Shown here: one piece after another, positions 1 through 59,584 of the stretch
Layout of the letters: each line of letters starts with the position of its first letter
Position numbering within the stretch: the first letter of the stretch is position 1
NCBI GenBank assembly: GCA_036785375.1
Contig: JAWMAR010000008.1
Coordinates: 9,424,001 to 9,488,000, forward strand
From: Leucoraja ocellata
Lineage: Eukaryota
Direction of reading: 5' to 3'
DNA: 64,000 bases
Made by a program: the position numbers and the translations under genes
Notes under the pieces: generated by a model
The model's database searches: none
Told to the model about the DNA's origin: nothing
Seen by the model: the letters and a program-made list of their open reading frames with translations, nothing else

Positions 1-1665
1 AGTTACAGCAACACATCTGCAGAGTTATGCATTAGTCTGAAAAATCCATTTACTTTGCAATATGAAACCAAATTCACATTCACGAACATTGCTGTATACA
101 GGAAATTACATATCACAGTGAACCTGATAATTGTCATTTTACTATCTTAGTTTAATAATATTACATTGAGAAAATATATTTTAGAAATAATGAATTACTG
201 TGTTCGACCTGTGCTGTGGGTATGTAGACAAACTACTTCATCCCCCCCCACTTTTCATCCTGGAATCAATTTATAAGCATCTCATTCTAAAGAATTCAGA
301 ACTCCAAAAGGGATAGAATGGAAATGGAATTGGAGAGGACATAAACACATTGTTCAGAAGGCCTGATAGAAGAGAAATTAACGTATTGGAGTCTCATATC
401 TAATTATATAATAAATCACAAAGTTGCCAGGGCATCAAGAGTTAATTAGCTTGATTCTTTAATTGCCGCGGTTTTAATTGGCAATCTGTGGCACTCACTG
501 TGGAACCATCATATTCTGTGAGAAAGCAGCAGGGGATTACAGGCGGTGCAGTGTGGGCTCATTACCTAACACTTTCCTTCACGTTGTCCAAGATCACGTA
601 ATTTATTTTAAAAAAAAAACACAATAAGCGCAATTAATTAAACTGGGCTTTTTTTTTGTTGTTGTTGCAATCTTCCCAGAGAGTGTATGCTGAAAAATGC
701 CTGCCAGTTCAACTCATGGCTGGATGGTGCAATCGTCAACTAATGCAAAGCTGCTGCTATAGATTGTACGTGGGATATTACAGCCTCAGCCTACTACTGA
801 GAGCATAAAGGGAGAAAAATTATCACATTAAACCTAAGGTAAAAGATCCTAATAAAAACCAAGAAGACTGTAAACTTAGAATCACCATCGGCAGGAGTTC
901 ACTGAACAACTAACTCATTAGTTACCTCCAATTCATGTGATCAAAGAAACCGCTTAATTGAGCATATTTTTAAGAACACAACTACAATATCCTTTCTTCT
1001 TATCACGAGTATCCTTCCTCAATGCGAGAGGGTATCACAGTCTGGACTGTAATCGGATAAGGATGTCGTGAGCTGTGTTATAGGTAAATAGCAGTCCGCT
1101 AAATACCATGAGATGCCAGAAGGCGTCTAATGCCTCAAATAAAAACATTTTCTCATTTATAAATCCCACCTCGGAGGGGGTAGCTGTGGTGCTGTTGCGT
1201 TGCAGGTAACAACCCCGACATATTTTAAAAAGTTCAAGCTAACGATGCTAAATAATTACAAAAAAAAATGATAGCAGATTAGTGCTTGAGCGTTGCCACC
1301 TGGAGCCACCTGGCAGATTGCTTATGGGTTATGGAGAGCATTGGTAAGATTGGGGTTATTTCACCAACTATTTCACATTGTGGAAAATGCTGGAACTACT
1401 TAGCAGGACAGGCCGCATCTATCATGAAGAGAAACATATTCAACGTTTCATCCGGAGTATTTCCGGCATTTTCTATTTTTGCTTTCGATTTCCAGTATTT
1501 GTAGTCTGGTTTTTCATTTCACGTACGGAAATGATGTCGCAAATTAGGAAAACGGCCAAGGAAATACCTTCTCTCAAATTATTTGAATACATTCCCAGTA
1601 CTATGTTTAAGGTGATTCATTTCTTGGAAACTTTTACGCGGCGCCAATACATGTAGTGCACTCAC

Positions 1666-1910
1666 CCCTGTTCCTCCATCATCTCCTGAAGCTCCATGCA
1701 TTTGAGTTCGACCCTTCTTTTCCGTTCGTGGTCTAGTATTTCCCGGTTGGCCTTTTTTACCACGAGTGGTTCCATTTGCTTGGGGTCCCCTTCGGTGGTG
1801 TATTCCGCGCCACTCTCCTTCCTTTGCGGGGCTGCAGAGAGCATTTGCTGAGCGCAGCCATTTGTACAGCTCTCCCGAGCGGAGGGCAAACCGTCGCCGT
1901 TGTTGTGCAT
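1666..1910 (-). CDS. SRRM3: First coding exon of serine/arginine repetitive matrix protein 3 (cwf21 domain); gene continues to lower coordinates beyond the window
   Basis: The ORF ends ...KKANREILDHERKRRVELKCMELQEMMEEQG, matching the SRRM3 cwf21 signature (SRRM2 has PDILDHERKRRVELRCLELEEMMEEQG). Phase-2 donor CAG GG|GTGAG at 1666/1665. Polypyrimidine plus CAG acceptor(s) at 1938-1959, upstream of the ATG. Confidence 0.9.
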
Positions 1911-19005: not shown

Positions 19006-20165
19006 GGAAACCATGGTTGAATAGGCCAATTAGGAGCTACTAAAATGCCTGATGCCTTGAATAATTTTCTGCAAGCATCTCCCAATAAGGCAGAATGGAG
19101 TGAAGACATAGAATAATATCCCCCCCCCCCCCCCCCCCCAAGTCTATAGAAAATGCATCGATTGCTTCTGCCCCTGGGTCTAGTTGCCAGGCTATACATC
19201 TTGGTAATTGATTAAGTCTGGAAGCAAACAAATCAACCTCTGGTGTTCCATAACAAGCTATTATCTTGTTGAATACTGCCTCATTCAGCACCCATTCAGT
19301 TTGTTCATTGAACTTCCGCGACTTAGCATCTGCTACCACATTGTATCTGCCCGGCAAATGAGCAGCTGATACAAAAATACTTCCATCGAGACACCAAGAC
19401 CAAATAGTTTTTGCCAGAGCATCACATGATAGTGATCTACAACCACCCATATGATTTACATATGCCACTGCTGTCGAGTTATCCAATTGTAGCCTTATAT
19501 GCACACCATGTTCCTTCCCACAATATGCTTTTAAGGCATGAAATGCTGCTAACATATCCAAATAATTTATGCCATATTTTTGCCCAAGAAGTAACTCTTC
19601 CTTGTTCCACCTACCACCACAACTAGAGATGGTGTTAGTTGCACCCCATCCTAGTCCACTAGCATCACTTTGCAGTGTTGCTGTGGGTTTATTATGTAGA
19701 AAGCTGCCCGAACAACCATGTATATTTGCAATCCCCCCCATTGTAGTTCAGCTTTTGACTGTCAACAACTTCATAGGTCTGTCAAAATGACCTTTTTCTT
19801 TTCCCTTGAGAAAATGTTAGAGATATATTCTTCTTTCTCATGGACCGACTGCTCAATCACTCATTTTTTATGCAATGCCTCTATCTCTGCTTGAATATCC
19901 AAAGTTTCCTTTTTGGATCGAATATACGCAGGCCTCAGCATGTCTTGTCGAGGAGGAAACTTGTCAGCCAAGAACTCAATTTTGTAACCCGTTATGCTAT
20001 GTAGTACAAACGGATCAGAAGTTATCCGTTGCCATTCATTTAAAAATAACCTTAATCAGTCACCGACACGAAATTCCTCCGCACACCCTATGTGACTGAT
20101 GGTTGCACATCCACCTACCTCAATGGTCGTAGGTGGTTTATCACTAGAGCCAGCAGACCCTAGAT
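18990..20165 (-). pseudogene. DIRS pol remnant: RT N-terminus, RNase H and methyltransferase-like domain; RT core missing
   Basis: RNase H motifs LQSDASGLGWGA, INYLDMLA, DNSTAVAYVNHMGGCRS, HLPGRYNVVADAKSR. MTase-like VDLFASRLN and PNWPIQPWFP. No YLDD motif. Confidence 0.88.
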
Positions 20166-21398
20166 TTTGTTCGGCCTTCTTCCTTTAGCTCTGACATCTT
20201 GACCTGTTGGGGACTGAGGCTGAACGTACGGTGTGCGCATCTTCCAAGGTGGACGAGATGGACCTAGGCCTAAAAAAGACCTCTGGCTGGGTCTAAATTG
20301 AGTAGGCCTGGTACTCCAACCAGCCTCAGAGAAATGATTCCTGCTGCTTGTCATATAGGGGTGATATTGCCGGAGTACTGGAGCCTTACCCTTATAGGGT
20401 GTTTTAAGCATATTCACAACAGCCTGGATGACTTGCTTGCAGAAATCTTTTCCGAAGAGATATGTTGCAGACTGCACATTACTGGGCCTGCATAAGTGTG
20501 CAAATTTAGGATTTATTTCAGGCCAAATGGCATCTTTACGAAAGCAATTTATCTCAAAATAAGCATTACATGACAGTGCCAACGTATCCTGCTGTACTTC
20601 CGAAAGCTGAGCCCCATCTACTGACCTAGCAAAGGCCGTGATACCTGCAGATAGTAGTCTCAGGATTCGTTGTAACTTTAGATCGTTTGACTTTACTCTG
20701 TCCTTGAGAGTATTCCAAATGATAGTATTGACTTTCGGGACATCCAAAGACTTGCAGTTTTCTGGGGTGGGATATTTTCCAACCATATCCAGCATAATCT
20801 CCTTATTCAACTGATGAGATAGTAAGAAGTCGATGCGCCTGGCCAGCCCTTCCTCTAGTGGCCGACTTGTCCCCGAGGGGATGGCTTCCTTATGATGAGC
20901 CTGCCGCATATCATCGATTAAATCATGAGATCCCCATTTCTTAGTGATATCCCCATAATCGGAGTCACCACTGTAAGACTCTCCGATACTCCCCTCATCA
21001 GAGTGGGAGACGTACTGCAACCCTGAGCTAAGTGCTGCTACAGGCATTTGGCTGGAGCCGCCTGTTAATGCCTCCTGAGCACGGAGCATATGTCGTTCCA
21101 TCAATTTTTCAACTTGCCACTCTAGTTTGGACAGCCGGTCTTTCGTAGATGTTGGGGCAGTGTCTTCCTGTCCATACTCGTTCCATTGGACATTTCTTTC
21201 TGATTTAGCTTTGGCCTTGCCCCGACTCGGGGTTGCCGAACTGCTCCCTCTTGGAGCTGAATGGGAGGTTGCTGTGTAGACCGCGGCTGCCAGCATCTCC
21301 GAAGTCGAAACGGGTGGCCGTCGGCTTTTTCCACTTCCGCGGTCCGCTGCCGCTGCTTTCTCAGCAGCCCGTTTCCCCTTTGCCCTAGGTTTATCCAT
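20160..21398 (-). CDS. DIRS ORF1 (gag-like), 412 aa, uninterrupted
   Basis: Long open ORF 5' of pol with DIRS ORF1-like segments (KYPTPENCKSLDVPKVNTIIW, DLKLQRIL, YLFGKDF). Confidence 0.8.
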   Translation of the reverse strand: MDKPRAKGKRAAEKAAAADRGSGKSRRPPVSTSEMLAAAVYTATSHSAPRGSSSATPSRGKAKAKSERNVQWNEYGQEDTAPTSTKDRLSKLEWQVEKLMERHMLRAQEALTGGSSQMPVAALSSGLQYVSHSDEGSIGESYSGDSDYGDITKKWGSHDLIDDMRQAHHKEAIPSGTSRPLEEGLARRIDFLLSHQLNKEIMLDMVGKYPTPENCKSLDVPKVNTIIWNTLKDRVKSNDLKLQRILRLLSAGITAFARSVDGAQLSEVQQDTLALSCNAYFEINCFRKDAIWPEINPKFAHLCRPSNVQSATYLFGKDFCKQVIQAVVNMLKTPYKGKAPVLRQYHPYMTSSRNHFSEAGWSTRPTQFRPSQRSFLGLGPSRPPWKMRTPYVQPQSPTGQDVRAKGRRPNKI

Positions 21399-21635
21399 CG
21401 CGCCAAACCTCGGCCAACGTCGGAATTAGTTGTACAATTGTACTCACCTGTTCGACTTTTAAACCTTACCACTTGGGGAAACTCACGTGACTTCGATATA
21501 AAACAGGAAATCAGTTGTTAAATTTTCCTTCAAATATAACCGGGGTTTTAGTTTCAAGTACTTATTTGCCACACTGATAATCTTTTTTTTTTTTTAAATT
21601 TTACAATTCAGTACTGGGTTTCCAATGCCATAATG

Positions 21636-57630: not shown

Positions 57631-59089
57631 AGTGACGTAGAGGCTGAGTTGCAGACTTCAATCCCGCTGCGGCAATTTAAGGAATATAAACTCAAATTTT
57701 AAATAAATCAGGAATTATAAAAAGAGAAAATATCGGTGGCACCAACCATGAAACAACTGGATTTTTGCAAAGTAACCTGTTGCTCTTAAAGGAAGGAAAT
57801 CTGGTCTCCTTGCTCAGACTGACCTAGTGCCACCTTACACTAGTCAGATTGGTTGATTCTAAACTGCTCTCTCAGTTGAGGAGAATTAGGATAGGCAACA
57901 ATGCCAGCATCATTAATGATGTTAACATTTAAAAAAGAATATGGACCCTCCTTACATTTTATTCCAAGCTCTAGGTATTCCAAGCTCTTGACTGCTCTCT
58001 GAAATACCCTTGCAAGCTATTTGGTTAAACAAATAATTCACCCTTTTCTTAAATAAACAGTTTTAAGTAAAACTGTATCCTATAAACATATTTATTTGCC
58101 TGGAGAATTTGAGCGAAACGCTTCCTGACAATGTACTTCAAAAATCATGTATTATATTTTGTTTTAAATCAGAAACTACTTGCTTCTCTTCTATATTCAT
58201 AAATATTTTAGAAACGTCATAATACAAGCAAAGATGTAAATACTTGCAATCGCATGTTCTTAAATCTATAGAATTATTTTTCAAAGAGAAAAAGATAATT
58301 ATCTTAGCTTTAGTCACTAACAATGTCATCCACGACATGTTTTACGTCTGGAGACTGCAGTGCTCCTGAAGGCAATGTGAACTGCCACTTCCACTGTACC
58401 AATATGTCAATTGCTGAGAAGTCAAGTCCTAAATAAACTTGGTCATAATCAATACTGTGTTTCATTATGTCGTATGTCATGCTGTCTACAGGCATGAAAT
58501 CAATACAGGCCTCCACAATGTATTTCAACGCCATGTATAAAGGTGACACATATGGTATGGAAATTATACTCCAGTACATCAGATTTGCTTACCTTGAAGT
58601 TACAGAGGTGCAAATGCCTAGACATTCATTTGTTTTGTTTATGGGTTCACTGAAGAAGGTCACAAGCGCCTGCAGGAGTTCTGGAGCAATGGACCTGGAA
58701 GACATGGGAAGCAGTATGGGTCCTATTTGCTATTCTGTGAATTTCATGCATTTATTGCATGGCAGTGCTCAGTCCTCAAGGGCATTCAGAGAGAAGTTAC
58801 ACACGTTATGGCTGCCATGAGGAAGAGAGCACTCGGGAAAGAGAAGGAGCTTGAAGGTTCACTGACTGTGCTGCAAGGATTGATTGTGGAGAGAAACTAC
58901 AATAAGGGAGGTATGCTGTGTGCCAGGGAGGCCAGGAGACCTGCTGGTGCTGTGGTTCACCAGAGGTAGCAGAAAGATGCAGAAATTCCGACTTCTGGGA
59001 GTGGAGACCTAGGGAATGGAGCAATGCAGCAAAGATGCAGTGGGTGTGTCCTTAACTGTTTCTCCTTCTCACACAACACATACACAGCT

Positions 59090-59219
59090 TCTTCTTGCGT
59101 ATGGCGTGCACAGCCTAAAGTTGACGGACACTTATTTGATCTTATTTGAATGTGCATGCCAGGTTGATTGAATTCATCGAAACAGGGCAGACCACGTGAA
59201 GGTCGCAATCTCCCACCCC
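59090..59219 (-). mobile_element. 130-bp non-autonomous retroelement (Ingi/Vingi-like) with 5' HDV-like ribozyme and (AAG)n tail
   Basis: TSD acatacacagct (59078-59089) versus atatacacagct (59220-59231), 11/12; minus 3' end GCCATACGCAAGAAGA; the 5' end folds as an HDV double pseudoknot. Confidence 0.75.
59166..59219 (-). ncRNA. Minimal HDV-like self-cleaving ribozyme fold (this copy has U at the catalytic C position)
   Basis: GGGGUGG(P1) GA GAUUGCG(P2) ACC(P3) UUCACGU(L3) GGU CUGCCCU(P1', G1.U wobble) G UUUCGA(P4) U GAA UUCAAUC(P2'). Confidence 0.7.
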
Positions 59220-59584
59220 ATATACACAGCTACTAATGTAAAGACTGTAACTTGACCATCCTTCACTATCTCCTTATTTCAGACTGAGAAGTAGCGGGGG
59301 GGAGGGGGGGGGGAGGCTACAAGATGAGATGGGAATTTTCACAAAGCTGGCGATAAGTGGCCATTCCAGCTCACGGATCCAGGAACTACACTGGTCCAGA
59401 CCGAACTACGAGCAGGGGGTTTGATAAATATCCCTTCCTCTTTGATGATCTATTCCCTGCAAATGCAAAACACAGGCATCTTATTTTTGCACCTCACTTG
59501 AGGATTATCTTTGCAGACTATGAAGAGGGTTCCCCTCTTCTTGCTTTCCCTCTCACTCCCCCTCCCACCAGCTCAGATGCAACA

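Follow-up and report, generated by a model that had tools for sequence, protein, structure and literature searches.

A short retroposon family of Leucoraja ocellata with a predicted HDV-like ribozyme head, probably an internally deleted derivative of a Vingi-like LINE

Short, internally deleted derivatives of LINEs are a known kind of retroposon, and NARTc, RIME, SIDER, the SIDEs of R2 and the derivatives of Vingi all belong to it. NARTc, RIME and SIDER, which are trypanosomatid elements of the L1Tc/Ingi clade, are short and non-coding, consist of the two ends of their LINE, and are described as having an HDV-like ribozyme from nucleotide 1 (PMC4035085). The R2 SIDEs and R2/R1 hybrid SIDEs of Drosophila are also internally deleted and headed by a 5′ ribozyme, which self-cleaves from the co-transcript (PMC3414825). 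As for Vingi, internal-deletion derivatives are on record as the bipartite non-autonomous elements Vingi-1_EE derivatives and SINE2-1_ACar; the text of Kojima (2018) does not list Vingi among the ribozyme-bearing clades, and its section 23 leaves it open why bipartite non-autonomous elements have come only from RTE, Ingi, Vingi and R2 (PMC5786205). From the side of the ribozymes, the closest forms are drz-Mtgn-1 and the theta ribozymes, nested double pseudoknots without P4 in which the catalytic C is the first base of J4/2. Such P4-less HDV-like ribozymes are active in vitro, and a change of the catalytic C to U inactivates HDV-like ribozymes (PMC10879173).

The element described here lies in a window of 64,000 nucleotides (64 kb) from Leucoraja ocellata, which is the whole stretch of DNA that was analysed. 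It shares with NARTc, RIME and SIDER the short non-coding form, the two LINE ends and the predicted ribozyme at nucleotide 1, while its host is a vertebrate, its parent is devoid of the RNase H that L1Tc has, its head is 54 nt without P4 in contrast to the 77-nt hallmark with P4, and its tail is (AAG)n (PMC4035085). Compared with the R2 SIDEs, it is not site-specific, has an APE-type parent, occurs as thousands of dispersed copies and, at 136 nt, is much shorter than R2Dwi_SIDE with 529 nt (PMC3414825). Unlike the bipartite Vingi elements, it carries no tRNA head (PMC5786205). Its P4-less fold resembles that of drz-Mtgn-1 and the theta ribozymes, nearly 99% of which come from gut phages, often beside tRNAs, whereas here the fold heads a vertebrate retroposon family and a LINE (PMC10879173). 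A search of the literature, with Repbase outside it, found no description of a Vingi ribozyme, of a vertebrate retroposon with a P4-less ribozyme, or of a fixed twin-priming site. What looks new is that a vertebrate retroposon should carry a predicted HDV-like fold of 54 nt that lacks P4, although the short family may already carry a name, Repbase and Dfam being outside the comparison.

The copy in the window occupies 59090-59219 on the minus strand and is bracketed by a 12-bp target-site duplication (TSD; 59078-59089 and 59220-59231) whose two copies are identical at 11 of the 12 positions, just as the first-pass annotation had proposed. Its parts are as follows, in the direction of the element.

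59220..59231, minus strand: 5′ copy of the TSD, 12 bp, its last base immediately before G1, the geometry seen in 45 of 49 TSD-bearing copies
59166..59219, minus strand: predicted minimal HDV-like ribozyme fold, 54 nt, equivalent to nt 1-54 of the parent LINE
59213-59219 / 59184-59190, minus strand: P1 of the fold, GGGGUGG/CUGCCCU, 7/7 paired, three of them G.U
59204-59210 / 59166-59172, minus strand: P2 of the fold, GAUUGCG/UUCAAUC, 6/7 paired
59201-59203 / 59191-59193, minus strand: P3 of the fold, ACC/GGU
59194-59200, minus strand: L3 of the fold, UUCACGU
Linker, minus strand: GUUUCGA, then U at 59176, then GAA, with a 6-nt linker in the place of P4
59176, minus strand: nt 44, the catalytic position, which reads U here and C in the family
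59151..59160, minus strand: 5′ arm of a predicted 5′-3′ helix, nt 60-69, from the 5′ UTR of the LINE
59125..59150, minus strand: A-rich middle, with the LINE 5′ UTR as far as nt ~79 and then the short, rearranged junction
59090..59124, minus strand: LINE-derived 3′ end of about 37 nt, with the last codons and stop of the ORF, the 3′ arm, the ATACG motif and the (AAG)n tail
59103-59112, minus strand: 3′ arm of the predicted 5′-3′ helix, inside the LINE-derived 3′ end
59078..59089, minus strand: 3′ copy of the TSD, 11/12 match

The 54-nt nested pseudoknot, with G1 at 59219, had been described earlier, and the same fold was recovered by a descriptor which, run over both strands of the 64-kb window, gave no match with C at the catalytic position and a single match with U, this element. 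Its P1 of 7 bp, P3, L3 and P2 are all present as described. P1, P2, P3, L3 and the G after P1 follow one another in nested-pseudoknot order, with G1 at the 5′ boundary of the element. The minimal P4 capped by UUCG did not hold up as a helix: UUCG is there, and at most one U-A pair closes it. ViennaRNA, which cannot model pseudoknots, gave no support for structure in this copy (z 0.19), and Rfam matched no HDV family on it, decayed as it is. When an intact copy was compared with 4,227 Rfam families, only RF00094 (21.7 of the 50 bits required, E 0.31) and RF02682 (14.4 of 44 bits, E 1.9) matched, both on the head and both below the cut-off. The HDV-like fold at 59219 is nevertheless not a chance occurrence, because the descriptor is unique in the window and the family that carries it is found genome-wide. 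Since the linker from P1.1 to the catalytic C has 6 nt and P1.1 has one pair, the activity of the ribozyme may be low.

How large is the family? A DNA search of the 3.44-Gb genome with the element gave 3,492 candidates. The 21-nt 3′ motif has 3,968 exact matches genome-wide and the core pattern of the head 7,905, with no match of the reversed control in either case; both counts include duplicated haplotypes, tandem duplications and heads of LINEs. Contigs of four organisms also contain the short family. The first 70 listed matches of the 3′ motif were surveyed copy by copy, a sample biased to young copies (about 6% substitution from the majority sequence), and 63 distinct ones were left after seven duplicates were dropped. 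Full length, reaching nt 1-4, is found in 53 of the 63. These are independent insertions with a variable tail: 49 of the 53 have a TSD, which measures 10-14 bp in 45 and stops exactly before G1 in 45, as expected if copies begin at G1. The base preceding G1 is T in 30 of the 53. The catalytic position at the start of J4/2, U in the window copy, is C in 53 of the 57 copies that cover it, and P2 is paired 7/7 in the majority, so the catalytic C stands in the consensus as had been foreseen. The family is about 136 nt long; the 130 bp given earlier holds for the window copy, which lacks 6 nt in its A-rich middle, the segment that corresponds to the site where inverted heads begin in copies of the LINE. 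A still shorter insertion of about 76 nt with a TSD (L091/L092, G000:C1:1032470 and 2043151) consists only of the ribozyme and the last ~22 nt. A second, identical copy of the window element with near-identical flanks exists at G000:C731:679427-679556 (L001), and the many identical pairs of this sort suggest that haplotigs were retained in the assembly.

A tandem run of heads on C1 was considered as a retrozyme array and rejected, for it proved to be a single insertion within a duplicated unit of ~2 kb; tandem duplications of ~2-2.9 kb at 19.26-19.28 Mb of G000:C1 (L187-L188) each contain the same insertion of the short element, and an inverted copy of this array lies at 19.41-19.43 Mb. On G000:C30 (L118/L119) a 5′-truncated L2-like element has inserted into a short copy immediately after its ribozyme and is accompanied by a duplication of AACCT. 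L118 and L095 are both cases of another LINE within a short copy, seen in full for L118. Many other short copies have deletions at the arms of the inverted repeat.

Within the family the majority keeps the catalytic C, U20 and G25 of L3 and the adenines of J4/2. The common variants of the head, at position 8 in J1/2, G32A (U.G to U-A) and position 45, are neutral to the fold, and variation in the stems is one-sided (G32A). Among head variants genome-wide, C44T is rarer than G45A (642:1489). This is weak evidence of selection, because a neighbouring CpG is also skewed (12:20) and partly matches the imbalance. In 164 pooled copies, C44T occurs at the CpG background rate (10/91 against 15/133 and 12/111). 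Strong selection on C44 was thus dropped as a reading of the ratio, which shows only variation of position 45 among source copies. These pooled copies give no sign of special inactivation of the catalytic C, and its decay runs at the ordinary CpG rate. The window copy is predicted to be dead at nt 44 (PMC10879173). Since its insertion it has been deprived of the catalytic C and of two positions in the stems, and it is likely inert.

The partner of the short element was first glimpsed as an open frame terminating within its last 37 nt. Four earlier patterns for the partner matched only deleted, truncated or nested copies, and failed because the junction had been wrongly assumed. A pattern based on the junction gave 288 tail matches with upstream sequence other than that of the short element, and most of the 100 listed are the sequence of one LINE. 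Upstream walking led to a full-length copy, L286, of ~3.1 kb excluding later insertions, which has the same head immediately after a 13-bp TSD and the same tail at its 3′ end. An ATG lies ~105 nt after G1 and is followed by a single broken ORF, without ORF1. Another ATG, at nt 47, lies within the ribozyme (J4/2-P2) in frame with the LINE ORF (L286:6184-5945, minus strand). Nucleotides 1 to ~79 of the element align with the 5′ end of L286 and its last ~37 nt with the 3′ end of the same LINE. In the main family, to which the window copy belongs, nt 1 to ~79 are linked to those 37 nt by a short, rearranged junction, while a subfamily (L222, L226, L232) is exactly nt 1-96 of the LINE plus its last 37 nt. 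Since the head and the last ~37 nt are those of a broken LINE, the element belongs with the short LINE derivatives that have arisen by internal deletion. An Ingi/Vingi-type LINE with both ends in common had been postulated by the first-pass annotation and is found in L286. The description of the family as promoterless, ribozyme-defined and SINE-like fared less evenly: it is non-autonomous and ribozyme-headed, and its head is the 5′ end of a LINE, so that it is better called a SIDE than a SINE. ARAGORN found no tRNA in three loci, and no tRNA-, 5S- or 7SL-type head, such as a classical SINE has, was among the Rfam matches of the intact copy. "Promoterless" may not apply, since the equivalent head of L1Tc is also an internal promoter (PMC4035085).

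By domain architecture the parent is Vingi-like. Vingi is described as having no RNase H domain, unlike Ingi (PMC13708176). Pieces of L286 match RVT_1, and Pfam found no RNase H on seven pieces of L286 or on the proteins P0001, P0007 and P0020, nor does RNase H appear among the Pfam domains given for the 120 relatives listed. APE was undetected by Pfam on the broken pieces of L286 and was detected on P0001, through which the single compact ORF with APE and RT typical of Vingi can be seen. Among database proteins P0001 comes nearest, with 77% identity across the RT piece; it is an intact protein of 1,019 aa with APE and RT and without RNase H, encoded on a 3.3-kb ENA contig; the other full-length relatives are 46-49% identical to P0001. 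Horizontal transfer is a possible reason for this closeness. No intact ORF of the parent LINE was found among the copies translated.

We consider it likely, with a probability of roughly three in four, that the family consists of the first ~79 and last ~37 bases of the 3.1-kb Vingi-like LINE, and that its predicted 54-nt HDV-like head cuts the RNA at G1, after which it is copied into new sites by the protein of the LINE. Common ends, TSDs, the start at G1, the (AAG)n tail and the copy number are the directly seen basis for regarding it as a derivative; that the head cuts itself out of longer transcripts at G1 is likely from the modelled fold. Transcription of a source copy would start either at a promoter of the host or in the head itself, and the ribozyme would then cut before G1 to leave a defined, folded 5′ end. 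The LINE endonuclease and reverse transcriptase would recognise the 3′ end and prime at the nick, giving the TSDs of 10-14 bp. In a fourth step, the RNA just behind the ribozyme would likely be kept near the insertion site, and this could give rise to inverted heads at nt 65-102, to head-to-tail joins and to the repeated birth of short derivatives.

The fourth step is suggested by rearranged copies of the LINE. Loci containing the LINE were picked by 3′ sequence, some with only 1.5 kb of upstream DNA, and the 116 were reduced to 89 by the manual removal of 27 duplicates, of which three are doubtful. Fifteen of the 89 have a 5′ inversion. In 11 of these the inverted piece begins at RNA nt 65-102 (at 72-85 in nine) and runs into the ribozyme, while uniform priming predicts 0.54 of 15 and a maximum of five was reached in 2 million simulations. 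The inverted head is inside the TSD wherever the TSD is clear. Inversions of this kind are reportedly known for L1 as twin priming, from Ostertag and Kazazian in 2001, and have in common with ours the TSD, an inverted segment of upstream RNA, a direct 3′ segment and microhomology at the TSD end. What differs here is that 11 of 15 second priming sites fall within one 38-nt window behind the ribozyme, and this excess over the 0.5 expected looks new. Moreover, three loci (L296, L318, L331) have the head joined directly to a 3′ fragment, which is how the short derivative would arise.

Why should the second priming site be fixed? A possible cause of the hot spot is a helix between the stretch that follows the ribozyme and the one that precedes the terminal ATACG. 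The two arms are 10/10 complementary in the family majority, with one change in the window copy. With windows chosen after looking, no shuffle out of 300 was as good for the short family or for L406, and two were for L351; the helix is marginal in L368 (14/300) and not significant in the parent L286 (41/300) or in L367 (248/300). This candidate 5′-3′ helix, possibly new as well, thus has support in three of the five LINEs tested. L351 and L406 have an ATG that overlaps the 5′ arm of the predicted helix. A bolder proposal is that Vingi-like LINEs use an end-joined RNA, in which an active P4-less 54-nt ribozyme sets the 5′ end and the helix keeps the two ends together where insertion takes place. 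This is a tentative model, and the odds are against it. If it is true, the site of second priming would be fixed, heads would be joined to tails, and elements of ~135 nt would arise again and again; the restriction of bipartite derivatives to a few clades of LINEs would be explained, and the family would be a natural reservoir of thousands of minimal ribozyme variants in a vertebrate.

Inverted heads may also arise with no tethering of the RNA, if the accessible A-rich tract at nt 70-79 pairs with T-rich target ends or if priming occurs on a separate RNA of the short element. Five copies (L227, L264, L289, L300, L311) in which the inverted head overlaps the TSD end by its first 3-7 bases, the T before G1 in 30 of 53 copies and the lack of significance of the helix in the parent speak for this. 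However, most inverted heads have LINE-type alleles (T45 and the GAC arm), unlike the abundant short family. We regard this explanation as possible and not the favoured one; it affects only the fourth step and leaves the identity of the element as it is.

That the head is a ribozyme, as the preferred reading has it, is supported by related LINEs. Among relatives from metagenomes, the same fold with a different sequence lies just upstream of the ORF in six of the 23 loci that have enough upstream DNA, and a stricter version of the descriptor matched none of 72 ORF-interior windows; controls with T, A or G at the catalytic position re-matched the same heads in a shifted register and are not independent. 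The other 17 have no match of the descriptor, and three more have heads by eye. In the six, P1, P2 and P3 differ on both sides, though these relatives had been picked by a descriptor of pairing. In L351 G1 comes directly after an 11-bp TSD.

Less probable, though worth keeping in mind, is that the head keeps its HDV fold but acts chiefly as an internal Pol II promoter, or else as a 5′ module that binds protein and resists nucleases, so that G1 is a transcription start and cleavage has been weak or absent since P4 was lost. All six relatives with a head have P4, with linkers of 15-35 nt, while the family and its parent have 6 nt and no P4. This loss, the in-frame ATG inside the L286 head, by which the head may have other duties, and the Pr77 head of L1Tc, which is promoter and ribozyme both (PMC4035085), are in favour of a promoter or a 5′ module. 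On the other hand, HDV-like ribozymes that lack P4 do show activity in vitro (PMC10879173), and most copies of the family preserve the catalytic C, U20 and G25 of L3 and the adenines of J4/2. As a separate observation, P3 of L350 (upstream of 612) encloses an insertion of ~80 nt and not a 7-nt loop, and was missed by the descriptor.

Mobilisation by another LINE, such as an intact two-ORF Nimb/I-like one with a (GAA)n end and TSDs of 11-14 bp, is very improbable: two such families with an RNase H-like C-terminal region (L181-L186; G000:C45, C991, C2033, C303, C129, C126) do have intact ORF2s of 1,246-1,268 aa, (GAA)n tails and similar TSDs, and were probably active recently, while the Vingi-like copies are broken, but their 3′ ends and variable G-rich 5′ ends differ from those of the element and carry no HDV head, whereas the Vingi-like LINE matches both ends almost base for base. 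Two-ORF, RNase H-type, GAA-tailed LINEs had been reached through PF14529 and were rejected as the source for want of shared ends.

Under the preferred reading of a Vingi-like derivative, one genome offers a candidate series of intermediates, from one full-length LINE through 11 inverted-head copies and three direct joins to a derivative of exactly 96+37 nt and, finally, the large family of 136 nt, and the question of the origin of bipartite elements therefore becomes testable. The element would likely mark the minimal cis-signals of a Vingi-like LINE, about 80 + 37 nt. Vingi-1 is in development for RNA-only gene insertion, with truncation and junction quality as stated problems (PMC13708176). 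If the head is active, a vertebrate would carry an HDV-like ribozyme without P4, and nearly all those described until now come from phages (PMC10879173).

Concerning the surroundings of the window copy, an exon with a cwf21 domain lies on the same strand as the element at 1665-1844 (minus strand), in a gene that we take to be SRRM3. The earlier description of the element as sense to SRRM3 thus holds for the strand. An intronic location is not supported by the one transcript seen: the first coding exon is spliced to a GC-rich upstream exon at ~2588 in one RNA contig (region 1665-2700, minus strand), which puts the element ~56 kb upstream. A far alternative promoter, or another gene, may span the region. 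As nt 44 is U, this copy is not predicted to cleave a pre-mRNA in any case. Elsewhere in the window, two long frames at 19040-21425 (minus strand) resemble those of a DIRS-type element, one being RNase H/methyltransferase-like and the other gag-like.
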